Shown here piece after piece: positions 931-39,891 of a stretch of DNA of 64,000 nucleotides; positions within the stretch are counted from its first letter, which is position 1; each line of letters opens with the position of its first letter. This stretch comes from Candidatus Latescibacterota bacterium (GTDB lineage: Bacteria; Latescibacterota; UBA2968). The DNA lies in contig OZ242311.1 of NCBI GenBank assembly GCA_965207885.1, forward strand, positions 5,568,001-5,632,000, in the 5' to 3' direction. The position numbers and the translations under genes were made by a program. A model generated the notes under the pieces. It had not been told where the DNA came from and ran no database searches. It saw only the letters and a program-made list of their open reading frames with translations.

Positions 931-1296
931 ATGGCCGACCAAAACATACCGACACAAGATCAACAAAACGAATTGTTATTCATGCAATTGGTCATGATGT
1001 TTCAGGGCATGGCATTGCAAAACCTGGGCAAAGTGATGAACCCGGTAACCAACCAGATCGAGCGCAACCTGGAACAGGCCAAAAACATGATTGACATCCT
1101 GGGCATGCTGGACGAAAAAACAAAAGGCAACTTAAACGACAACGAGCAAAGATTAATGGAACACATATTATTTGAACTGCGGATGAATTATGTAGATGAA
1201 CTCAAAAAGGACGACGCATCAGAAGAGCAGACATCAGAAGAGCAAGCAGAAGATAATACCACTGAAAACGAAGCTCCTGAGGAGGAAAAAAATTGA
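931..1296 (+). CDS. DUF1844 domain protein
   Basis: LGKVMNP..NLEQAKNMIDILGMLDEKTKGNL..L.ELRMNYV pattern; acidic tail; AGGAG SD. Confidence 0.85.
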   Translation: MADQNIPTQDQQNELLFMQLVMMFQGMALQNLGKVMNPVTNQIERNLEQAKNMIDILGMLDEKTKGNLNDNEQRLMEHILFELRMNYVDELKKDDASEEQTSEEQAEDNTTENEAPEEEKN

Positions 1297-1805
1297 TCAC
1301 ATCCCAAAAGTGGTCGGCTTGCTGCTTACTCCTCATCATGTATCTACCCTTGAGTTGTGCTTATTACTCCACATCTGCCACGGGCAGTGGTGGCATCCGC
1401 TCCGTCGCTGTACCGCTGCTCGACAATGAAAGTCTCGAAGCCGGTATTCACCAGGCACTAACAGACAGCTTAATTCAGGGATTTGTCTCTGATGGTGCCC
1501 TGCGCGTAGTCGAAGAAGATCAGGCAGATGCCGTATTGCAAGGCACTGTCCTCGAAATCAAAGAAGAACCCTTTACCTATGGCGGTCAAGCGAGTGCCGA
1601 ACAATATCAAATCTCCGTCTATGTAAAAATGGCTTTCTACGACGCGCGGGAAAAACAAACACTCTGGGAAATTGAACGCATGCGCGGCTACGGCATCTAC
1701 GACGCGGCAAGCCAACGCGACCTCGCCCGCACGCAAGGCATCGGCGACGCGCTGCGAATGCTCTCCAAAGATGTCGTAGATCGAACACAAGTAGGAGGAT
1801 GGTGA
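1293..1805 (+). CDS. LptE-family LPS assembly lipoprotein
   Basis: Lipobox LSC; IRSVAVP..N, ADAVLQGTV and TLWE motifs of LptE-like proteins. Confidence 0.7.
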   Translation: MITSQKWSACCLLLIMYLPLSCAYYSTSATGSGGIRSVAVPLLDNESLEAGIHQALTDSLIQGFVSDGALRVVEEDQADAVLQGTVLEIKEEPFTYGGQASAEQYQISVYVKMAFYDAREKQTLWEIERMRGYGIYDAASQRDLARTQGIGDALRMLSKDVVDRTQVGGW

Positions 1806-1808
1806 CGT

Positions 1809-2747
1809 ATGCCTGAAGAAAACGTAATCGTCGATGACTTCATGCAATTGATCGGCGGTACGCCACTAATTCGCTTAAACAACCTGGCGACATCCGACAT
1901 GGCCGAAATCGTCGTCAAAATGGAATCTCTGAATCCGGCTCGCACGGTAAAAGATCGCATAGCCCTATCCATGATCGATGCCGCAGAACGCGACGGACAC
2001 TTAAAGCCCGGCATGACCATCGTCGAGCCAACCAGTGGCAACACCGGCATTGGTCTGGCAATGGTCGCAACCGCGCGAGGTTATCGCCTCATACTAACCA
2101 TGCCCGACTCCATGAGCCGGGAACGACGCGACCTGCTCGAAAGTTACGGCGCCGAATTGATATTAACACCGGGCGACCTCGACATGCCCGGCGCTGTCGC
2201 AGAAGCCGAACGAATCGTCAACGAATCACCCGAAACGACCTTTATGCCGCAACAATTCAACAACCCTGCCAACCCGGAAATACACCGCCAAACCACAGCT
2301 CGGGAAATATTAGAAGCCGTTGACGGTCACCTCGACGCCTTTGTCGCAGGCATAGGCACGGGAGGAACCATCACAGGCGTGGGCGAAGTCTTAAAAGCCG
2401 CATTAGACCATGTGCGCGTAATCGCAGTCGAACCCGCCAAATCCCCAGTCCTATCGGGCGGAGAGCCAGCACTACACGGCATCCAGGGCATCGGCGCGGG
2501 ATTCGTACCCTCCGTACTCAACCGCGACATCTTTGACGCACTTATATGCGTACGCGACGAAGACGCCATCAAAACGGCTCGCAAACTCGGTCGCGAAGAA
2601 GGCATTTTGGCCGGCATATCCGCCGGGGCAAATGTATTCGCCGCCCTGCAAATCGCCCGCGACCTGGGACCGGGCAAGCGGGTCGCAACCATAATCTGCG
2701 ACTCGGGCGAGCGGTACTTCAGCGTACCTGAATTCTTACAAGCATAG
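1809..2747 (+). CDS. cysK: cysteine synthase A
   Basis: IGGTPLIRL, VKDRIA (PLP Lys), EPTSGNTG, GIGTGGT, HGIQGIGAG. Confidence 0.93.
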   Translation: MPEENVIVDDFMQLIGGTPLIRLNNLATSDMAEIVVKMESLNPARTVKDRIALSMIDAAERDGHLKPGMTIVEPTSGNTGIGLAMVATARGYRLILTMPDSMSRERRDLLESYGAELILTPGDLDMPGAVAEAERIVNESPETTFMPQQFNNPANPEIHRQTTAREILEAVDGHLDAFVAGIGTGGTITGVGEVLKAALDHVRVIAVEPAKSPVLSGGEPALHGIQGIGAGFVPSVLNRDIFDALICVRDEDAIKTARKLGREEGILAGISAGANVFAALQIARDLGPGKRVATIICDSGERYFSVPEFLQA

Positions 2748-2776
2748 TTTGAACCCACTTACAACCGGAGATACTC

Positions 2777-3823
2777 ATGAGCAATATCCCCAATTATTTG
2801 AAAAATTACGCCGACCTCTACGCCGACAACCCGCGTGCTGCTGCACTACAATGGTTCCGCGAAGCGCGTTACGGCCTGTTCTTACACTACGGACTCTACT
2901 CTCTAATAGGGCGACACGAATGGGTACAATTGCGAGAACTCATACCCGTTGCCGAATACGCAAAACTCATAGACGACTTCACCGCTGAAAACTTCGATGC
3001 CGAGCGCATCGCGCAATTTGCCGTTGACTGCGAGATGAAATACATCAACATCACCACGCGGCATCACGACTCATTCTGCTTATTCGACACAGCGGAAACG
3101 GACTTTAACAGCACCAATGCCCCAGCGGGCCTCGACTTGATCAAAGAACTGGCCGAAGCGTGTGATCGACACGCACTCGGATTGTGTTTGTACTACTCCC
3201 ATGGACGAGATTGGAAACATCCACATGCCCCCAACAACGACGAATGGGGTGGACAGGCAAGACCCAAATACGACCCGCCCGAACCGAGCTATGCCACTGG
3301 CTCCGCGCACAACCTGCAAATATATCTCGACTTTATGCAGGCGCAAATCACAGAACTACTCACAAATTACGGACCCGTAGCCGCAATCTGGCTGGACGGG
3401 GTTGCCGTTCCCAACAACGGCGACAAAGCAAAATTTAAGAGTCAGGAACTCTACGACTATATCCACAGCGTACAACCACAGGTACTCGTCTCCTACAAAC
3501 AGGGCTTGCTGGGCACCGAAGACTTTCAGGCACCCGAACATCAGGCCGTAGAACAGGCAAACAAACCCATGGAAATCTGCACGACAATGTGTTCTGGACC
3601 AGGAGGAAAAGGCGTATCCTGGGGCTATCTCGCCGAAGGAGGCCACCACAAAACTGAGGAAGAAGTTTGGACGGCACTGACAGCAGCGCGGGAAAGCGGT
3701 TGCAATCTATTGTTAAACACCGGACCCCTGCCTGATGGATCACTCGACGAAAAAGATGTACCAGTACTGCTCGCAGTGGGCGAACGCATTCGCAAAGAGG
3801 GATTTCCCGGAGAAGGAGCCTGA
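2777..3823 (+). CDS. alpha-L-fucosidase (GH29)
   Basis: WFREARYGLFLHYG, TTRHHDSF, ELLTNYG..IWLDG (nucleophile Asp), NLLLNTGP; no signal peptide. Confidence 0.85.
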   Translation: MSNIPNYLKNYADLYADNPRAAALQWFREARYGLFLHYGLYSLIGRHEWVQLRELIPVAEYAKLIDDFTAENFDAERIAQFAVDCEMKYINITTRHHDSFCLFDTAETDFNSTNAPAGLDLIKELAEACDRHALGLCLYYSHGRDWKHPHAPNNDEWGGQARPKYDPPEPSYATGSAHNLQIYLDFMQAQITELLTNYGPVAAIWLDGVAVPNNGDKAKFKSQELYDYIHSVQPQVLVSYKQGLLGTEDFQAPEHQAVEQANKPMEICTTMCSGPGGKGVSWGYLAEGGHHKTEEEVWTALTAARESGCNLLLNTGPLPDGSLDEKDVPVLLAVGERIRKEGFPGEGA

Positions 3824-3827
3824 CTTT

Positions 3828-5783
3828 GTGTCAGTTCAAACAACCGACATACAGGAACCCCAACCCCTGACACAACGATCGCCCTGGTGGGCAATTGCAT
3901 TGGCTGTATTGATCACCGTATCAATCAACGCAATCATACCCTATACCCATCACTACATGCACACCATATCACTGGTCGAAGGCATGATACCGATGGGTAT
4001 TTTTATGCCATTTTTGGTACTGATCTTTATCGTAAACCCCGCGCTGCGCGCTCTGGGATATGCATTACAGCCCTGGGAATTGATTTTCATTTTTGCGGTA
4101 GGCTATGTGAGCATGTCCATCAATGAACTGCTCGGGCGCGTACTGGCAACCTATGCCGTAATGCACTACATGGCAACGCCGGAAAACCTCTGGGAAGAAT
4201 ACGTCTTTGGCCTCGTCCAACCCTATCTCGTAGTCGAAGATGCCAAAGATCAACTGGCCTGGTTTTACGAGGGCTTGCCTCGCAACGCAACGATCCCCTG
4301 GGCAATCTGGATACGCCCCACATTCTGGTGGCTGAGCTTTATCGCTGCGCTCGGCCTGGGATCAGTCGCACTGGCGACAATCCTGCGCCGGCAATGGGTC
4401 GAACAAGAACGATTGCCATTCCCCTTTGCGCAAGTAGCCGAAGAACTCGCCGAAACAGCGGGACCAAAGGGATTTCCCGAATACATGAAACAGCCGCTAT
4501 TCTGGGCTGGCTTTTCCATTCCCGCAGTTATCGTCCTGTGGTACATCATCGGCTACTTCGATCCCAGCTTCCCCGTAATTACCATAGGAATCCAAAATTA
4601 CACGATCTCATTGGGACGGTACGTACCCTTCCTGCACGGGCGGCTCAACTTTTTAATTATTGGATTTGCGTACTTTACCGATCTACAGGTCTTATTTTCC
4701 ATCTGGATATTCTGGGTACTCACCTGGCTTCAAATAGGGATGACCAATCGGCTGGGCCTGGCAGAGGGCCTAGGCGAATTTGCTGGCACGCGACAGCAAG
4801 CACTGGGGGGATTTATCGTCTTTTGTCTGTGGGGATTGTGGATTGCGCGAACCCACATAAAGGCAGTATTTCAACAGGCATTTCGTCAAACAAAAAACAT
4901 GGACGACCAGAACGAATTGATGTCCTACCGCACTGCAGTCGCCACATTTCTCGCCTGTGCTCTATTTGCCATGTTCTGGTTATTCAAAGGAGGGATGACA
5001 CCGTTTTGGGCCGTATTGGTCACGGTGTTCTGGTTTGTTTTTTACACTGGATTTGCCAAAATCGTAGCAATGACCGGACTCGTATTCCTGGAATCGCCCA
5101 GCAGCCTGGGCACCGGCATTATGGGATTCGCACCGCCCGATTCACTGTCGCCAAACACAATTGCCATGCGGCAACAAGTGGGCAGCATGTATCAAAATGG
5201 CAAAAGCTTCACCATGCCCGCTGCCGCCCATGCCGCCCGGTTGAGCATCAACCTGGGCAATCGGGCACGCGTACTGGGCTTGACCATCGCATTTGCATTT
5301 GTATTTTCGCTCATCGCCGCCGCCGCATCGACAATTTATCTGGGCTATACCGACGGCGCATTCAATTTTGGCTCGTACATGTTCCGAGTTGCCGCGCCGC
5401 GTTACTACGACGGCATTGTATCGTCCATCCGCGACATTGGCAAAGAGACCCACTACGGTCTTCGGATGGCATTTACGGCATTTGGCGCGCTGACAATGGG
5501 CATCTTAACCCTCTGCCAATACCGATTCACCTGGTGGCCTCTCCATCCCATCGGCTTTACAGTCGTAACCTTCTATTCGGCGCGCACCGCCATTTTATCC
5601 GTATTTCTAACCTGGCTGATTAAATTTATCATCTTCCGCCTGGGAGGAATCGCGCTGTATCGCAGGGCAAAACCCTTTTTCATCGGCATGATCGTGGGAT
5701 ACACCCTATCGCTCATCGTGAGCATGGGCGTCGATCTCATCTGGTTCCCCGGGCAAGGGCACAATCTGTATTGGGGGGACTAA
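3828..5783 (+). CDS. polytopic membrane protein, DUF6785/DUF6784 type (putative transporter)
   Basis: Many TM helices; RRQWVEQERLPFP, WWPLHPIGF, RRAKPFFIGMIVG; GTG start at 3828 just after the fucosidase stop preferred over 3735. Confidence 0.75.
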   Translation: MSVQTTDIQEPQPLTQRSPWWAIALAVLITVSINAIIPYTHHYMHTISLVEGMIPMGIFMPFLVLIFIVNPALRALGYALQPWELIFIFAVGYVSMSINELLGRVLATYAVMHYMATPENLWEEYVFGLVQPYLVVEDAKDQLAWFYEGLPRNATIPWAIWIRPTFWWLSFIAALGLGSVALATILRRQWVEQERLPFPFAQVAEELAETAGPKGFPEYMKQPLFWAGFSIPAVIVLWYIIGYFDPSFPVITIGIQNYTISLGRYVPFLHGRLNFLIIGFAYFTDLQVLFSIWIFWVLTWLQIGMTNRLGLAEGLGEFAGTRQQALGGFIVFCLWGLWIARTHIKAVFQQAFRQTKNMDDQNELMSYRTAVATFLACALFAMFWLFKGGMTPFWAVLVTVFWFVFYTGFAKIVAMTGLVFLESPSSLGTGIMGFAPPDSLSPNTIAMRQQVGSMYQNGKSFTMPAAAHAARLSINLGNRARVLGLTIAFAFVFSLIAAAASTIYLGYTDGAFNFGSYMFRVAAPRYYDGIVSSIRDIGKETHYGLRMAFTAFGALTMGILTLCQYRFTWWPLHPIGFTVVTFYSARTAILSVFLTWLIKFIIFRLGGIALYRRAKPFFIGMIVGYTLSLIVSMGVDLIWFPGQGHNLYWGD

Positions 5784-32940: not shown

Positions 32941-34398
32941 TTAATTGAAAGACCTCTCCGCCTGCTTAACAATACCCTTCAACATGCGCTTGAAAATGAG
33001 ATAGTGGATGGGATAAAGGCCATACCAGTAAAGCAAGCCCCCCAGACCCAGAGGATCGAAAATAGCCGTCTGGGTTATCTGGCTACCCCCTTCCACGGGC
33101 TGGACCTCAAACTGAAGCCATGCCCGACCAGGCACCTTCATCTCTGCCTGCAAGCGCAGAAGGCGATGTTCTTCAAAAGCCTCAACGCGCCAGAAATCCA
33201 GGGGATCTCCCGGCCGCACATCAACCGGGTGTCGTCGCCCTCGCCGCATACCCACCCCACCCAGCAGCAAATCCACAAAACCGCGCAAATACCAGAGCCA
33301 TGTCGCAAAATACCAGCCCTGATCCCCCCCAATGCGCTGAACAGGATCAAAAGCTCGGCCGGGTTCCACACTCGCAAAAGCCTGCTGGCGATCAACAAGA
33401 CGAGAACCAAAACGCCTTCCACCCCATAAAGGCTCCTCACCGCTTGAAGACACCGCATCGCTCCAGCGGGTCTGAGCCATCTCCCGGTCCTCCTCCTCAA
33501 GCGCACGGGCCATCGCCTGACGCACATTTAGAGGACGGACGGGAAAACGCTCGCGCGCACCATCATCTCGGACAATCGTCTCATTCCGCAAACTATCGAT
33601 AAGCTTCTTACCCACCCGCGCATAAAGAGGCGTCACCAGCCCCAACCACAAACTGGAAAGACGGGGACTCAAAAAAGGCACCGGAATCATAAGACGTCGC
33701 ACGGCAATCTGACGGGCATATTCGCGCATCAACCCGCCGTAAGATAATTGTTGAGGACCCCCAATCTCAAAAACCGCGCTACCCTCCTCCTCCACATCCA
33801 GACCCCGGATCAAATAAGCAATCACATCCCCAATCGCAATCGGCTGGGTTGGCGTGCGGACCCAGCTCGGCGTAATCATAATCGGCAACTTATTGACCAG
33901 ACTCCGCACCATCTCAAAAGACAGCGAACCCGAACCAATAATAATAGAAGCGCGAAACTCCAGCGTCGCAGGTCCCTCGGAAGTTAGAATAGCCCCCACC
34001 TCCCGGCGACTCGCCAGATGGGAAGAAAGCTCACGATCCCCAACCAGACCCCCCAAATAAATAACGCGCCGAATCCCCTGCTGCAGCGCGACGCGAGCAA
34101 AATTTTGTGCCCCAATGCGGTCCTGCTCCTCAAAATTGGCTCTGGACCCCATAGAATGCACCAGATAGTACGCCGTATCTATCCCCTCCAGAGCAACCCT
34201 CAGCGAATCCCGATCCAGCACATCACCCGCGACAATCTCAGTATCGGAACAAAACCGACCAGCCAGATACTGGGGATTGCGAGCCAGGCAACGCACGCGC
34301 GCTCCTATTTCTTCAAGCGCCGGAACCAGCCGCCCACCAACATAACCGCTGGCTCCCGTCACCAGTACGAGCTTGTCTTTTCCCTTATCCTGAGACAT
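32941..34398 (-). CDS. YbjT-like NAD(P)-binding SDR with DUF2867
   Basis: TGASGYVGG, YYLVHSM, IGG..GWY, DFWRV, AEMKVPGRAWL. Confidence 0.88.
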   Translation of the reverse strand: MSQDKGKDKLVLVTGASGYVGGRLVPALEEIGARVRCLARNPQYLAGRFCSDTEIVAGDVLDRDSLRVALEGIDTAYYLVHSMGSRANFEEQDRIGAQNFARVALQQGIRRVIYLGGLVGDRELSSHLASRREVGAILTSEGPATLEFRASIIIGSGSLSFEMVRSLVNKLPIMITPSWVRTPTQPIAIGDVIAYLIRGLDVEEEGSAVFEIGGPQQLSYGGLMREYARQIAVRRLMIPVPFLSPRLSSLWLGLVTPLYARVGKKLIDSLRNETIVRDDGARERFPVRPLNVRQAMARALEEEDREMAQTRWSDAVSSSGEEPLWGGRRFGSRLVDRQQAFASVEPGRAFDPVQRIGGDQGWYFATWLWYLRGFVDLLLGGVGMRRGRRHPVDVRPGDPLDFWRVEAFEEHRLLRLQAEMKVPGRAWLQFEVQPVEGGSQITQTAIFDPLGLGGLLYWYGLYPIHYLIFKRMLKGIVKQAERSFN

Positions 34399-34405
34399 CG
34401 CCTGC

Positions 34406-35440
34406 CTAATGCATATCTATGGACAGCACATAACTGAGCAGAGTCACCAAAAGCCACGTCGCCACCAGCACAACCCCAAAAGGGCGCTTCATCGCATTGC
34501 CCGACACAAAAATGCCGCAGCGGAAAACAACGAGAATAAACACCATTGCCGGAAACAAAAATTGGAAAAACTGACCATCTGCTTGCAAGCCACCTGGTGT
34601 TGCCGCGGCCGAGACACCAGCGACAAAGAGCACATTGAGAATATCCGCGCCGATAATATTGCCAACCGCCAGCTCGCCGTGCCCGCGTCTAACAGCGGTG
34701 ATCGCCGTCACGAGTTCTGGGAGCGACGTGCCAAACGCGACAAGCGTCGCCGAAATAATGTGCTTTGGCACGCCAATTCTCTCTGCCAAAATACTCACAC
34801 TGGGAATGAGAATTTGAGCCGAAAGAACAATAACCGCAATCGCCAGGATCAACTTGACAAGCACGAGGGACGCGTTACTCTCCTCCGCATCGGTTGCATC
34901 TTCCTGCTCAGCATCCGACATAGTCGCAGCCCATCGGATCGACTGCCAAATATAGAGCCCCAAAAGAACAACAAAAGCGAACCCGGCGAACTGTGGCAAA
35001 ACCCCACCCTGACTAAACAATTTCGCGGGAGACGCCCACGGAAAACAGGCGAGCACCAGAAGAATACCAGCCCCCACCTGCACATTAGACAACCGCGACG
35101 CCAACTGACGGTTGAGAGGTAGGGGAGCAATCAGAGAAGCCAGACCAATGATAAGGCCCGTATCGCAAATAATCGAACCGACGGCATTCCCAAGCGCAAG
35201 CCCCGGTTTCCCCTGAAGCGCCGAAAACACGGACACCGCCGCTTCCGGCGTCGTCGTACCAATACTCACAATCGTCGCACCGATAACCGCTTTCCCCAGC
35301 CCCCAGCGCACCGAAAGCGTCACAGCTTCATCGACGAGCCAATCCGCACCTTTGCCGAGCGTGTACAGCGTCACCGCAATAATCACAAGCATGTACGGAC
35401 TGGCCAATCCCATCACAAGCTCTTCAATCCACTTTTCCAT
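34406..35440 (-). CDS. Ca2+/Na+ antiporter (YrbG/CaCA family)
   Basis: GTTTPE and GTSLPEL alpha repeats, GNAVGS, GNIIGA. Confidence 0.9.
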   Translation of the reverse strand: MEKWIEELVMGLASPYMLVIIAVTLYTLGKGADWLVDEAVTLSVRWGLGKAVIGATIVSIGTTTPEAAVSVFSALQGKPGLALGNAVGSIICDTGLIIGLASLIAPLPLNRQLASRLSNVQVGAGILLVLACFPWASPAKLFSQGGVLPQFAGFAFVVLLGLYIWQSIRWAATMSDAEQEDATDAEESNASLVLVKLILAIAVIVLSAQILIPSVSILAERIGVPKHIISATLVAFGTSLPELVTAITAVRRGHGELAVGNIIGADILNVLFVAGVSAAATPGGLQADGQFFQFLFPAMVFILVVFRCGIFVSGNAMKRPFGVVLVATWLLVTLLSYVLSIDMH

Positions 35441-35456
35441 CTTCTACCTTTCCCAA

Positions 35457-36230
35457 TCAAATAACAAAAATATCACTCGGACGATCCTGCTCTGCCACAC
35501 TCATCGGAAAAGACCGAATACCCTGACCCTGCAACATATCTGCACATGTCTCTCGCGCCAAATCCGGCCGATTATTTTTCTCACTCAAATGCGCCAGAAC
35601 CGCCTGCTGCAACCCCTCTCGCGCCAGATCGCACAACGCCTCGGCAGCCCCATCATTTGACAAATGACCGTGCGTACTATTAATCCTCTGCTTCAAAACC
35701 CAGGGATAAGGCCCATCCATCAGCAATTGCCGATCGTAATTCGACTCAATAATCAACAGATCAGCGCGGCGCATATGCTGATAAACCAACTGCGTCACCG
35801 TACCCATATCTGTAGCAATCGTCACATTGGCCTGCCCATCCGTCACAGAAAAATTCACGGGATCAGCGGCATCGTGAGGCAATTGAAACGCCTGAAAAGA
35901 CAAATCGCCAATTGAAAAAGCCTCATCATTTTCAAACACCCGAATCTTTTCAGTCCCTCGAAAAATCTTCTTCGACGCATTCAGCGTACCCTCCGTCATC
36001 CAAACGGACAACCCGTACCGCCGCGCCAACACCCCCACCCCCTTAATATGATCGGAATGCTCGTGACTCACCACAACAGCCTGCAAACCCGCTGGATCAA
36101 ACCCAACACCTCGCAAACGCTCTTCGATCTTCTTACCCGTCAAACCCGCATCGATAAGCACACTTGAAGAACCATTTTGAACACAAATCGAATTGCCACC
36201 GCTACCACTTGCCAACAAACAAATCTTCAC
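35457..36230 (-). CDS. MBL-fold hydrolase (YycJ/WalJ-like)
   Basis: LASGSGGN, SHEHSDH, HDA, ESNYD, GHLSN, HLSEKNN. Confidence 0.9.
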   Translation of the reverse strand: MKICLLASGSGGNSICVQNGSSSVLIDAGLTGKKIEERLRGVGFDPAGLQAVVVSHEHSDHIKGVGVLARRYGLSVWMTEGTLNASKKIFRGTEKIRVFENDEAFSIGDLSFQAFQLPHDAADPVNFSVTDGQANVTIATDMGTVTQLVYQHMRRADLLIIESNYDRQLLMDGPYPWVLKQRINSTHGHLSNDGAAEALCDLAREGLQQAVLAHLSEKNNRPDLARETCADMLQGQGIRSFPMSVAEQDRPSDIFVI

Positions 36231-36248
36231 CGGTAACTCCTCTATTCA

Positions 36249-38543
36249 CTACTCATTCACAATCCGCGCCACCCAAATACTAATCTCGTACAAAACTACG
36301 AGCGGCAGCGCCATCAAAACCTGAGACAGGGGATCGGGAGGGGTCAAAATAGCGGCGAGTATAATCCCGAACACAAGCGCATAACGCCGTCCCTTTCGCA
36401 TCCGATCGCGTGTTGCAATCCCCATCTTAGCCAAAAAAAACGTCAACACGGGCAACTCAAACACCAGGCCAAAAGCAATCAGAAGGCGCAGCACAAAACC
36501 GATATACTCCCCAATATCAAACTGCGGCATCACAATCGTATCAGCAGCCATACCAACAAAAAACTTCATCGCCAATGGGATAACCAGCCAGTACGCCAAA
36601 ACAGCACCAACAACAAAACACACAGTAGCCGAACCAATCACAAACGTCACAAATCGCCGCTCGCTGGCAAACAGACCGGGCGCGACAAACATCCAGATCT
36701 GAAAAATCAAAAACGGCAGCGCCAGAATCCCCCCACCCACCAGCGCGATCTGCAACTTGACCATAAACATGCCCATCGGTCTTAAGGTCTGCAATATCAT
36801 TTTATCTTCCAGTTCGCGGGTAGGGTGGATCAACACATCCAAAATCTCATTGACAAAAATTCCGCAAAAAACCGCGCCTATAATAATCGCGGCCAACCCC
36901 TTCAAAATGCGCCACCGCAACTCCTCCAGATGATCGAGAAAAGGCATCGGCTTGCCTTCATCGGGCAGATCTTCTTCATCGCGGTCTGGCATAATCGCCG
37001 GCACCGTACCCTCAGGCGGTGCAACATCCTCCTCCACCTCTCGCGGTCGCCGAATAGCCGACACCGCCAACCCCATCAACGCGATCACGCCGCACAACTG
37101 AGAAAACAAATCGCCAAACCGCATATAAAGCGTCTGCTCATTGCTCGGTGCAATAGTCCCTGCCACAACAGCCTCGTGAAACAAACCCGTCTTTTGCTCT
37201 TGCCGCCCATAGGGATCGATAAACATCGACACACCCGTATTGGCACAGCGCACCACCCAACGCCTGTTCTCAACAGCCCTGAACGTCGCAATATCCGCGT
37301 GCTGATAAGGTGCTGACGTGCGCCCGTACCACCCATCATTCGTAATCACCACCAAAAACTCGGCACCCCGAACCATCATATCGCGCGCAAGCCAGGGAAA
37401 CACCGAATCAAAACAAATCATCCCGGAAAACTTTCCACCCGGCACCTCAAAAACCGTAAGCGCAGTCCCGCTCTCAAAATCGCCGCTGATATACCCACCG
37501 CCACTCCATTGAAAATCGCGCAAAAACCCGAGCAACTTGGGAAAAGGCGCCCGCTCTCCAAACGGCACCACCTTCACCTTGTCGTAATGCGGCAAATCGC
37601 CCCCGCCAGGCTCCAACAAAAAAGAAGAATTGTAATAGCGATCCCGCGCCGCGGCCTCGAAGCGATTCGCCCCCATATACAGATAAATCCCCAGCGAATC
37701 GACCAGCGCCTGCACCCGCGCCTGATACGCCTGTTGCGATGCATCATCACGCTTCAAATACGCGGGCAAAGCCGCCTCTGACCACACAACCAACCGCGTC
37801 CCCGACTCCGCGGCCTGAATCGTCAAAGGCTCCAACTTGTTAAAATTGTGATCAAAACCCCAGTAAGATTTCTCAACAGGCGGCACATTTTGCTGCACAA
37901 TGGCAACCTTCAAATCGCCCTCGGCAACCGGCTCTGCCATACGCCACAAACCAAATCCCGCTGGCAGTGCAAAAGCCAGAACCAGAGCACCAACCATCAA
38001 GTCTCGCCGCGCACTTTCCAATGCCTTAAACGCAATCAGATTAACCACCACCACCCAGAACGACACCCCGTAAACCCCTGTCGCCTCTGCAATCTGGATC
38101 AAAGGCAAATAATCCACCTGGCTATGCCCGAGGAGCATCCACGGAAAACCCATATCGCCCAGCGTATTAAAATATTCAAACCCCACCCACAAAAAAGGCA
38201 CCATCCACAACCCCAGCCTGCCAACGCGCGCCATTGCAAACGCCCACAACCACACAAACAGCCCCCGAAAAAGCGACATATACAAAATTGCCCCCGCCAT
38301 ACCCGGGGGGGTAATCCACGCAATCCAATAAACACTCGCACCGTAAAAAACCACACCCTGCAAAAAACCCGCGCCAAAAGCCACGCGCCCACGCAGATTT
38401 TCGGCAACGGGAATCAGAGGCAACAAACTGATACAAGCCAAAAAACCGAGCGGCAAAGGAGGAAAAGCCGCTGCCATCAGCAGACCCGACAAAATCGGAT
38501 ACCCGAGCACCAACCGCCAACCCCACGTATTGTCCTGCGCCAT
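36249..38543 (-). CDS. lnt-tatC: fusion of apolipoprotein N-acyltransferase Lnt and Tat translocase subunit TatC
   Basis: Lnt GFPW, WSE, YDK..VPFGE, ICFD, TNDGWY, RAVEN, ANTGVS; then in frame TatC HLEELR, FVAPGL..ERR, FGLVFELP, TPPD..SQ, LYE. Confidence 0.9.
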   Translation of the reverse strand: MAQDNTWGWRLVLGYPILSGLLMAAAFPPLPLGFLACISLLPLIPVAENLRGRVAFGAGFLQGVVFYGASVYWIAWITPPGMAGAILYMSLFRGLFVWLWAFAMARVGRLGLWMVPFLWVGFEYFNTLGDMGFPWMLLGHSQVDYLPLIQIAEATGVYGVSFWVVVVNLIAFKALESARRDLMVGALVLAFALPAGFGLWRMAEPVAEGDLKVAIVQQNVPPVEKSYWGFDHNFNKLEPLTIQAAESGTRLVVWSEAALPAYLKRDDASQQAYQARVQALVDSLGIYLYMGANRFEAAARDRYYNSSFLLEPGGGDLPHYDKVKVVPFGERAPFPKLLGFLRDFQWSGGGYISGDFESGTALTVFEVPGGKFSGMICFDSVFPWLARDMMVRGAEFLVVITNDGWYGRTSAPYQHADIATFRAVENRRWVVRCANTGVSMFIDPYGRQEQKTGLFHEAVVAGTIAPSNEQTLYMRFGDLFSQLCGVIALMGLAVSAIRRPREVEEDVAPPEGTVPAIMPDRDEEDLPDEGKPMPFLDHLEELRWRILKGLAAIIIGAVFCGIFVNEILDVLIHPTRELEDKMILQTLRPMGMFMVKLQIALVGGGILALPFLIFQIWMFVAPGLFASERRFVTFVIGSATVCFVVGAVLAYWLVIPLAMKFFVGMAADTIVMPQFDIGEYIGFVLRLLIAFGLVFELPVLTFFLAKMGIATRDRMRKGRRYALVFGIILAAILTPPDPLSQVLMALPLVVLYEISIWVARIVNE

Positions 38544-38550
38544 ACTATCA

Positions 38551-38580
38551 CCTGTGTTCATCTGTGTCTATCTGTGGTTA
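38551..38580 (-). repeat. 10-nt tandem repeat CACAGATRRA x3
   Basis: Same family as 29571..29599. Confidence 0.7.
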
Positions 38581-38676
38581 AAAATCCCTATTGCAAAAAA
38601 CACAAAGATTACGGAATATAAAGACGGGTCAAATCCCTGTCAATTGCCGTCCAAAAAAACAAACCCGGTCTATAAC

Positions 38677-39891
38677 ATGTTACCCGACCTCAATACAGAA
38701 CTCCAGGCATTGCGCGAACAAAACCTCTACCGCTCGGTGCGAAGTGTGGAAACCAGCCAGGAACCCCGCATCCGCATCAAAGGGCGAGAACTCATCCTCT
38801 TTTGCTCAAACAACTATCTGGGCCTCGCCAACCATCCCGTCCTCAAAGGTGCAGCAATCGAAGCGCTCAACACCTATGGAAGCAGCACCGTAGCATCGGC
38901 ACTCATCTCGGGATACATGCCCCCACACGCCGACCTCGAAAGCAGCATGGCACAATTCCTCGACACAGAAGCAGCCATCGCATTTCCCACGGGCTACACG
39001 GCCAACCTCGGCGTTATACCCGCCCTCATCAACCGCGACGACATCATTTTTAGCGACCAATTAAATCACCGCAGCATCATTGATAGCTGTCGCCTCTCCC
39101 GCGCACAAATCGCCATCTATAACCACTGCGACATCGCCCACCTCGAAACCCAGCTCAAAACCTCATCCGCCCATCGCCGTCGCCTCATCGTCACCGATGG
39201 CGTCTTCTCAATGGACGGAGACATCGCCCCACTGCCCGAACTCGTCTCCCTCGCCGAACAACACAACGCCATCCTCATGGTCGATGACGCCCACGCAACC
39301 GGGGTCCTCGGACCTGGGGGTCGCGGCACCTTCGAACACTTTGGCCTCTCTCCCGAAGCCATCGACATCCTCATGACCTCCGGCAGCAAAGCCCTCGGCG
39401 CATCCGGCGGATTCATCTGTGGCAGCCGCGACCTCATCGACCTCATACGCAACCGCTCGGCAGCGTACATCTACACCACCGCAATGCCGCCCGACGCATG
39501 TGCATCCACCACCGCGGCACTCGACCTCATCCAGCGCGATACCAGCTTGCGCCAACGCCTGTGGCACAACACAACAACCATCAGCCAGCACCTTCAAGCC
39601 CTCGGATTCGACCTCGCCCAATCCCAAACCCACATCATACCCATACTCGTTGGCGACGCCCAGAAAACCGTTGAAATATCCGAACACCTCTACAACCACG
39701 GCATCTACCTCTACGGCATACGCCCCCCCACCGTACCCGAGGGCCAAAGCCGTCTGCGCCTCTCCGTCATGGCAACCCATACCGACGACGACATCGCACA
39801 ATTATTAGACGCCATGGCCGAAGTCCGACACAGTTTTTTTGGAGACCACCAGGTCCAACCCCCTCGACCACATCCGAATCGTCCTGGTTGA
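38677..39891 (+). CDS. bioF: 8-amino-7-oxononanoate synthase
   Basis: SNNYLGLA, SDQLNH, DGVFSMDGD, DDAHA.G, SKALG, IRPPTVP..RLR. Confidence 0.88.
   Translation: MLPDLNTELQALREQNLYRSVRSVETSQEPRIRIKGRELILFCSNNYLGLANHPVLKGAAIEALNTYGSSTVASALISGYMPPHADLESSMAQFLDTEAAIAFPTGYTANLGVIPALINRDDIIFSDQLNHRSIIDSCRLSRAQIAIYNHCDIAHLETQLKTSSAHRRRLIVTDGVFSMDGDIAPLPELVSLAEQHNAILMVDDAHATGVLGPGGRGTFEHFGLSPEAIDILMTSGSKALGASGGFICGSRDLIDLIRNRSAAYIYTTAMPPDACASTTAALDLIQRDTSLRQRLWHNTTTISQHLQALGFDLAQSQTHIIPILVGDAQKTVEISEHLYNHGIYLYGIRPPTVPEGQSRLRLSVMATHTDDDIAQLLDAMAEVRHSFFGDHQVQPPRPHPNRPG

Follow-up and report, generated by a model that had tools for sequence, protein, structure and literature searches.

A single reading frame joins Lnt to TatC

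The gene described here lies in a 64,000-nucleotide stretch of contig OZ242311.1 (positions 5,568,001 to 5,632,000, assembly GCA_965207885.1; hereafter 'the window') from an uncultured, sponge-associated member of the Latescibacterota, whose 6.23-Mb genome is a single contig. In one uninterrupted frame it encodes an apolipoprotein N-acyltransferase (Lnt) followed by TatC, a component of the twin-arginine translocation (Tat) system. We place a probability of roughly 75% on the reading that its product is one bifunctional inner-membrane polypeptide, in which each half would serve its ordinary role and which derives from a coupled lnt-tatC gene pair. The open reading frame (ORF) occupies window positions 36249..38561 of the minus strand, with its stop codon at 36249-36251, and comprises 770 amino acids (aa) when read from its first ATG, from which residues are numbered here. 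A second in-frame ATG at 38543, the start adopted in a preliminary description made from the sequence alone, yields a 764-aa product. The 38543 codon is probably the true start, because it is preceded by AGGTGAT, a Shine-Dalgarno (SD)-like motif complementary to the 3' tail of 16S rRNA, whereas the ATG at 38561 lacks such a motif.

Judged by profile searches and alignments, the two halves belong to the Lnt and TatC families. The N-terminal half contains the Lnt membrane domain LNT_N (residues 25-175; 38037..38489, minus strand as for all parts of the gene; PF20154, 110.5 bits), which is helical in the structural model, followed by a presumably periplasmic, nitrilase-like CN-hydrolase domain (residues 218-473; 37143..37910; PF00795, 121.2 bits). 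The latter carries the catalytic triad E262 (codon 37776-37778), K328 (37578-37580) and C383 (37413-37415), which we take to be the counterparts of E267, K335 and C387 in E. coli Lnt. The NCBIfam lnt equivalog TIGR00546 scores 327.4 bits, about 2.5 times its cut-off of 132.9, over model positions 10-394 of 395, and an alignment to Lnt proteins of solved structure (5n6m, 5n6h and others) extends over residues 21-506 with an E of about 1e-33. The C-terminal half (TatC domain, residues 539-770; 36252..36947) is matched by PF00902 at 223 bits over residues 543-753, covering model positions 1-208 of 208, and by the NCBIfam tatC equivalog TIGR00945 at 212.6 bits (cut-off 132.7). Residues 539-768 align with residues 1-230 of Aquifex aeolicus TatC (4b4a; E 4.5e-43), which places M539 on Met1. 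A Pfam scan of the protein returned no match to a glycosyltransferase family, the C-terminal domain being TatC. Between the halves lies a linker of 35 aa (residues 504-538; 36948..37052) that is acidic and proline-rich (12 D/E, 5 K/R and 7 P) and disordered in the structural model. Pfam, NCBIfam and the structure alignments thus agree with the preliminary description, which had recognized a single 764-aa frame with a full Lnt including its E-K-C triad, an acidic, Pro-rich linker of about 35 aa and a full TatC.

An AlphaFold2 model of the protein has a mean predicted local distance difference test (pLDDT) score of 85.7 and a predicted template modeling (pTM) score of 0.70. Its Lnt part consists of helices up to residue 208, a beta-rich domain spanning residues 217-470 and a last transmembrane helix at residues 485-503 (37053..37109), which would return the chain to the cytoplasm and is followed directly by the sequence RRPR. 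The linker is the sole long low-confidence part of the model, with pLDDT below 50 at residues 510-534. Beyond it, helices at residues 541-568, 595-626, 635-671, 683-712, 725-739 and 744-769 form a six-helix core like that of solved TatC structures. In known systems, both termini of Lnt and the N-terminus of TatC are cytoplasmic. The topology of the fusion, which had already been called compatible from the sequence, appears so in the model as well: the Lnt C-terminus, the linker and the TatC N-terminus would all reside in the cytoplasm, and the TatC part aligns with the Aquifex protein from residue 1. A predicted complex of Lnt (residues 1-510) with TatC (residues 539-770) gave interface (ipSAE) scores of 0.00 and 0.00, values that were obtained without controls and carry no verdict.

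The fused frame is genuine and conserved

Several independent lines of evidence confirm that the fusion is real and conserved. A search of a protein collection with residues 440-770 returned 314 clusters at E<=0.001, and among the 120 clusters listed, 113 contain LNT_N, CN_hydrolase and TatC domains, 5 are short CN_hydrolase-TatC fragments and 2 contain TatC only. The 113 three-domain clusters are 38-93% identical, and named sources label the fused proteins as apolipoprotein N-acyltransferases of metagenome-assembled genomes (MAGs) of Latescibacteria or Gemmatimonadetes. In an alignment of these 113 clusters with the window protein (5 fragments and 2 TatC-only clusters were left out, and identity reaches down to 38%), all 114/114 sequences share E262, K328, C383, M539, E634 and numerous further residues, while conservation of E546 and E547 is at least 90%. 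The conserved TatC glutamates presumably map to E15 and E103 of E. coli TatC, for which we assume, from E. coli work, a role at the twin-arginine binding site.

The junction itself is supported by sequences from other runs. Four public sequencing runs were compared over window positions 36100-38700. A 6412-nt contig from a sponge-metagenome run of another study covers this entire interval with 11 substitutions and no gaps, and contigs from two RNA libraries bridge the junction (X15 record 1, 36102-37265; X16 record 5, 36805-37091). These RNA-library contigs derive from relatives that are about 95% identical and differ within the linker only by 3-base deletions at 36970 and 37034, which leave the frame intact. 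They establish presence in RNA libraries, from which transcription, a 5' end or a transcript level does not follow, and the missing cover of X16 over 37492-38535 proves nothing. The preliminary description had singled out positions 36940-37060 as the place where sequence support would matter, and the gapless contig and the multiple-of-three indels supply it there. An assembly or sequencing error, or a decaying gene pair, that merely gives the appearance of a single frame is hardly credible in light of these data. Local errors are conceivable in a MAG that consists of one contig, has 5% contamination and contains an approximately 59-kb inverted near-duplicate elsewhere, but the same frame recurs in an independent contig, the architecture is common to 113 clusters and 52 related genomes, the linker indels are multiples of 3, and the catalytic and binding residues are invariant.

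To describe how the fusion is distributed, PF00902 was searched against 168 genomes of the phylum, the frame lengths given below being those of the matches listed, with 16 further matches outside them. TatC was found in 162/168 genomes, nearly always as a single copy. In the window's family (f1, own genome included) the single TatC lies within a frame of 713-821 aa in 31/31 cases, and in the sister family f2 it lies within frames of 769-841 aa in 21/22 cases, the remaining frame (506 aa) being located at a contig edge. Family f4, which belongs to another order of the same class, is mixed. Within it, the frames measure 801-866 aa in 24/29 listed genomes of genus g25, 889-983 aa in g30 and in most of g31, and 295-450 aa in most of the other genera. 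In families f3 and f5-f14, the TatC frames span 250-464 aa. Judged by frame length, the fusion is kept throughout the window's order. MAGs that are named 'Gemmatimonadetes' by NCBI and carry the lnt-tatC pair fall in the same phylum (locus L033 is identical to L093 of genome G116). A stop between the domains in close relatives had been put forward as the observation that would speak against the fusion. None occurs within the same order, and those that occur in another order lie between genuine, translationally coupled genes.

Origin from an lnt-tatC gene pair

To gain insight into how the fusion came about, we compared loci at which TatC is encoded in a short frame. Twelve of 20 such loci, all of them from f4, have lnt immediately before tatC in the same orientation. 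In one locus (g23) lnt lies 1.9 kb upstream, and in the remaining 7 (f3, f8, f9, f10, f13, f14 and genus g21 of f4) no lnt was found within about 3.5 kb. Of 80 named loci in a second set, 32 are fused, 2 have a stop in the same frame, 6 have the two genes side by side but in different frames, 1 has the genes 1.9 kb apart, and at 39 only Lnt is present. By name, the Lnt-only loci come mostly from other phyla (Zixibacteria, KSB1, Calditrichaeota, Eisenbacteria, WOR-3 and others), together with a few Latescibacterota or Gemmatimonadota MAGs, and no tatC was found downstream of lnt in any of the 39, of which 34 have at least 1.3 kb of downstream sequence. Pooling both sets and removing duplicates left 17 distinct loci with adjacent, unfused genes. 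The overlap between the nearest in-frame tatC start and the lnt stop is 4 nt (ATGA) in 6 of these and 8 nt in 4, and tatC begins 3-4 nt after the stop in 6/17 and 37 nt after it in 1/17. A single in-frame stop (…KLD-stop-A-M…) sets four g25 loci apart from the fused loci of that genus. All intermediate states (i.e. unlinked genes, overlapping genes, genes separated by a single in-frame stop, and fused genes) are found in sister lineages, and their comparison shows, at the level of gene arrangement, that the fused gene goes back to neighboring lnt and tatC genes, the start of tatC having overlapped or abutted the stop of lnt.

The linker has a recognizable source. At the 17 unfused loci tatC opens with an extension of 14-48 aa, mostly acidic (M-T/S/A-D/E...), that runs into the invariant MPFLDHLEELRWR, and the stand-alone TatC of family f3, which lies behind mnmA and near the same BioF-like gene that adjoins the window's ORF, has a 29-aa extension (MPEESDQ…). 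Since unfused and stand-alone TatCs carry the same extension, the linker is, by sequence comparison, TatC's own acidic N-terminal extension. It contains M524 (36990-36992; AIMPDRDEED), which looks like the former tatC start. At locus L100 of family f3 (genome G037, positions 941-4370) the BioF-like gene faces mnmA-tatC, mnmA taking the place of lnt in a shared neighborhood.

A FastTree phylogeny of 93 Lnt parts, which is unrooted, has some long outgroup branches and omits one Lnt fragment dropped for short coverage, requires 3 changes of the fused state, and the starred branches also force 3. The window's clade comprises 23 rows, all of them fused, with a support of 100. Ten further fused rows make up a second clade, which is embedded in the unfused g25 forms, and fusion is seen a third time in a lone row (L051) surrounded by unfused forms of g31. 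The fused state appears to have been reached more than once in the class, gains and losses being inseparable on this tree.

Tat lipoproteins in fused and unfused genomes

The preliminary description had proposed a translocon dedicated to folded lipoproteins. The fusion cannot be dedicated in this sense, because it is the genome's only TatC and only Lnt. A whole-genome profile search returned a single TatC match, which answers the question of further tatC copies raised earlier, and the 5 matches to Lnt that fall below the cut-off are other CN-hydrolases. The census of Tat lipoproteins that had been suggested does not support the proposal either. Matches to TIGR01409 (TAT_signal_seq) number 12 above the cut-off (E<=0.1) and 21 at E<=10 in the host genome. 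A signal was counted as ending in a lipobox-like cysteine if the Cys lay 13-36 residues after the twin arginine, was preceded by G, A or S, and had no D, E, K, R, Q, N, H or P among the eight preceding residues. Two of the 12 signals qualify, one ending in LLAGC (a TRAP-type binding protein) and the other in IGAGC (an MsrP-like protein). The first type is exemplified by RRDFIKKAGLAGGAALLAGC at genome position 750676 (TRAP-type binding protein). Further candidates, below the cut-off or found by regular expression, end in LAGC (genome position 2553328) or LTSC (in a 965-aa protein, GRRKFLQVMGASLAFAGLTSC). By a crude rule, the genome encodes about 106 lipoprotein-like N-termini, most of which lack a twin arginine. 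A regular-expression census of Tat signals produced 211 matches, mostly membrane proteins, and was discarded as too loose to count.

The same rule was applied to other genomes of the phylum. Lipobox-like cysteines end 15/41 Tat signals in six genomes with the fusion (2/12 in the host and 0/1, 2/5, 4/10, 5/8 and 2/5 in the others) and 5/8 in two genomes of the same class in which the genes are unlinked, as compared to 1/22 in three genomes of other classes (0/13, 0/3 and 1/6, the first count being from the best 13 of the 81 matches in genome G011). Folded lipoproteins would thereby make up about a third of the recognizable Tat signals in the class. Within the class, the lipobox share does not track lnt-tatC linkage, and the difference between classes amounts to a single phylogenetic contrast, so the class-level excess of Tat lipoproteins is only a hint.

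Two observations on Tat signals stand apart from this comparison. Genome G011 (family f10) has 81 TAT_signal_seq matches at E<=0.1, whereas ten other genomes examined have 1-12; none of the best 13 of these 81 matches has a lipobox-like Cys, and its TatC lies in a longer frame (the f10 frames listed are 406-464 aa). In an MsrP/YedY-like family (genome positions 5701992 and 2553328, with relatives at L129, L131, L133, L126, L143, L148, L158 and L159), the frames extend upstream of the twin arginine with a conserved '...PEREATPEDVY(M/L)NRR(R/K)F', which is unusual for an n-region, and many of these signals finish in a lipobox-like Cys.

A probable bifunctional membrane polypeptide and its alternatives

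In the reading that we favor, the chain would begin with an apolipoprotein N-acyltransferase of eight helices with a periplasmic, nitrilase-like domain bearing the E-K-C triad, end its Lnt part in the cytoplasm, and be connected there by a flexible, acidic stretch of about 35 aa to a TatC of six helices, the subunit of the twin-arginine translocase that receives signal peptides. Once Lgt and LspA have acted, the Lnt half would attach the third acyl chain of every lipoprotein, and the TatC half, together with TatA encoded 4 Mb away, would export all folded Tat substrates. Loss of the stop or a change of frame would have hard-wired a 1:1 co-production that translational coupling already provided. 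A 35-aa flexible tether should not hinder the formation of TatC oligomers.

Several points weigh against this reading. Accumulation of the full-length protein is a prediction, the RNA-library contigs are no proof of transcription, and the activity of both halves is deduced from conservation only. On the FastTree phylogeny, which is unrooted and has long outgroup branches, gains of the fusion cannot be told apart from losses, and the counts of Tat signals and lipoboxes depend on a short hidden Markov model and a self-made rule. In addition, the invariant Met at the start of TatC would also fit an internal start that yields free TatC. Initiation at M539 or M524 could in principle produce such a protein, with the fused form perhaps being minor, although we consider this rather unlikely. 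M539 is encoded by ATG in 32/33 fused loci (the exception, L051, has ATA, and its alignment is uncertain) and is invariant in 114/114 proteins even though the surrounding linker is variable; it aligns with the natural Met1 of Aquifex TatC, and the weak GAAGG noted earlier before MPFLDH is indeed present at 36955-36959, an AAGG-type SD motif 7 nt upstream of the ATG at 36945-36947. However, the same Met is found in 20/20 adjacent-unfused loci, 2/2 loci with a 1.9-kb gap and 6/7 stand-alone tatC loci, so it need not mark a start, because it is kept where an upstream start and an N-terminal extension are likely. The SD-like motif is also not conserved: 6/12 rows in the near clade of the window retain GAAGG, and in the second fused clade this position reads ccccgagaagccaacATG, without an SD-like motif, although the host genome does use such motifs (1500/3075 long ORFs have one at -20..-5, as compared to 303-305 at control positions). 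A scan for promoters and terminators found no promoter-like site inside the 3' part of lnt, its counts being equal to shuffle expectation and therefore not evidence for or against an internal promoter. Taken at the sequence level, these findings argue neither for nor against internal initiation that gives free TatC. Separation after translation, in which a cytoplasmic protease would cut the linker and the fusion would serve only co-translation and co-insertion, is more improbable than this. The linker is disordered, with pLDDT below 50 over residues 510-534, it varies in sequence and length, and separate proteins function in unfused relatives, but no conserved cleavage motif is visible within it.

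A further possibility concerns not the form of the protein but its purpose, namely that the tether holds Lnt by the Tat translocon so that folded Tat lipoproteins are N-acylated as they emerge, and that selection for this coupling drove both the linkage and the fusions. This idea draws on the restriction of lnt-tatC adjacency to one class, none of the 39 Lnt-only loci (34 with at least 1.3 kb of downstream sequence) having it, on the conversion of adjacency into fusion more than once, and on the frequency of lipobox Tat signals in the class (15/41 in fused and 5/8 in unlinked genomes, versus 1/22 in other classes). There is also a precedent in mycobacteria, where Lnt is reported to be fused to, or to interact with, its pathway partner Ppm1 (PMC3460810). 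Nevertheless, we regard the coupling as doubtful. Lnt is the last of three steps, and Lgt and LspA, which act earlier, are both unlinked; the sole TatC and sole Lnt of the genome cannot be dedicated to one substrate class; in the host itself only 2/12 Tat signals end in a lipobox-like Cys; Tat lipoproteins are as numerous in two unlinked genomes of the class as in the fused ones; and the class-level difference is a single phylogenetic contrast that includes G011, counted from the best 13 of its 81 matches. The strongest form of the idea, in which Lnt and the Tat receptor are one physical machine in this class, folded lipoproteins being matured at TatC with the acidic tether beside the twin-arginine site and the fusions recording selection for proximity, is more doubtful still. 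If it were true, TatC would be able to function while its N-terminus carries a membrane protein of 500 residues and eight helices.

Genomic setting of the fused gene

The closest named relatives at the Lnt-TatC protein (91-95% identical) are Candidatus Latescibacterota MAGs, and the neighborhood of the gene is kept in close relatives. The only TatA/B-family match above the cut-off in the whole genome is an 84-aa TatA (match at C1:1597004-1597153), and neither a second TatA nor a separate TatB was found there above the cut-off. It lies about 4 Mb from the window, in agreement with the earlier remark that tatA and tatB are not nearby. Lgt and LspA are each encoded once, elsewhere in the genome. 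Three genes follow the fusion on the minus strand (32941..36230) with gaps of 7-18 nt and encode an MBL-fold hydrolase, a Na/Ca-exchanger family protein and an NAD-binding + DUF2867 protein; together with Lnt-TatC they form a possible operon. Upstream, and divergent from it, are an aminotransferase class I/II (BioF-like) gene and a SpoU methylase. A promoter-like TTGACA-17-TATATT lies upstream of the ORF (38615..38643, minus strand) and is a consensus match only, 2 such sites having been found where 2.5 are expected.

Other features of the window and genome were observed in passing. Between window positions 33000 and 42000 strand composition is very strongly skewed, the plus strand having a GC skew of about -0.3 and an AT skew of +0.2 to +0.3, and the skew continues across genes of both strands (for example the BioF-like gene on the plus strand and Lnt-TatC on the minus strand). 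Genome-wide, 100-kb bins show skews of up to +/-0.15-0.22 with many sign changes along the single contig, a pattern that fits neither a simple two-replichore arrangement nor a pure coding-strand effect. The motif GGATCACCTCCTTTCT at window position ~20460 (genome position 5588460, minus strand), which is typical of the 3' end of 16S rRNA, suggests an rRNA operon in this part of the window. Finally, the first ~59 kb of the contig (C1:1-59000) are an inverted near-duplicate of C1:5838486-5892858, 97.2-99.7% identical in blocks of 2.7-15.6 kb, which is possibly a strain-level or fold-back assembly artefact of the MAG.

Comparison with known systems

The union of Lnt and TatC appears to be undescribed, although both halves are textbook proteins. 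No report of it was found in a search of the full-text literature, with about 1.7 million PubMed Central (PMC) articles and subscription journals lying outside its coverage, and the words 'fusion' and 'fused' do not occur in the available portion of a 2013 survey of TatC diversity (PMC3827258). The public label 'apolipoprotein N-acyltransferase' hides the organism's sole TatC from surveys that are based on annotation. For the Tat field the fusion constitutes a natural experiment, as all members of an order depend on a TatC that is joined to a large membrane enzyme by its N-terminus, the part next to the site where signal peptides bind. It thus offers a natural system for asking if TatC tolerates or profits from a tethered lipoprotein-maturation enzyme, and the intermediate states in sister lineages make a coupling of Tat export to lipoprotein maturation testable.

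With respect to the Lnt enzymes of E. coli and P. aeruginosa (5n6h, 5n6m, 5vrg, 5xhq), the window protein is alike in having LNT_N and a CN-hydrolase domain with the E-K-C triad, and differs in its additional 266-aa C-terminal part (linker and TatC). Its TatC half matches the TatC of minimal TatAC translocases (Aquifex aeolicus 4b4a, 4hts) over the full length, from Met1 to the C-terminus, and, as in these minimal systems, the host genome has one TatA and no separate TatB. Unlike Aquifex TatC, however, the N-terminus of the window's TatC is tethered via an acidic extension to an eight-helix enzyme. The extension is a feature of the TatCs of the window's phylum, stand-alone ones included. Tat-dependent lipoproteins occur in Streptomyces and haloarchaea, and the host likewise has twin-arginine signals with a lipobox cysteine; to our knowledge, TatC is not known to be linked to an acyltransferase in those organisms, either physically or genetically.

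The closest architectural precedent is Rv2051c of M. tuberculosis, in which an N-terminal Lnt is fused to the polyprenol-monophosphomannose synthase Ppm1, Lnt and Ppm1 being adjacent ORFs in other mycobacteria and corynebacteria (PMC3460810). The Lnt-Ppm1 fusions mentioned in the preliminary description are a valid precedent. The evolutionary pattern of Rv2051c matches that of Lnt-TatC, in that Lnt is N-terminal and the two halves are adjacent, separate ORFs in relatives, whereas the C-terminal partner in Rv2051c, which belongs to another phylum, is a cytoplasmic synthase and not a subunit of a membrane translocase.

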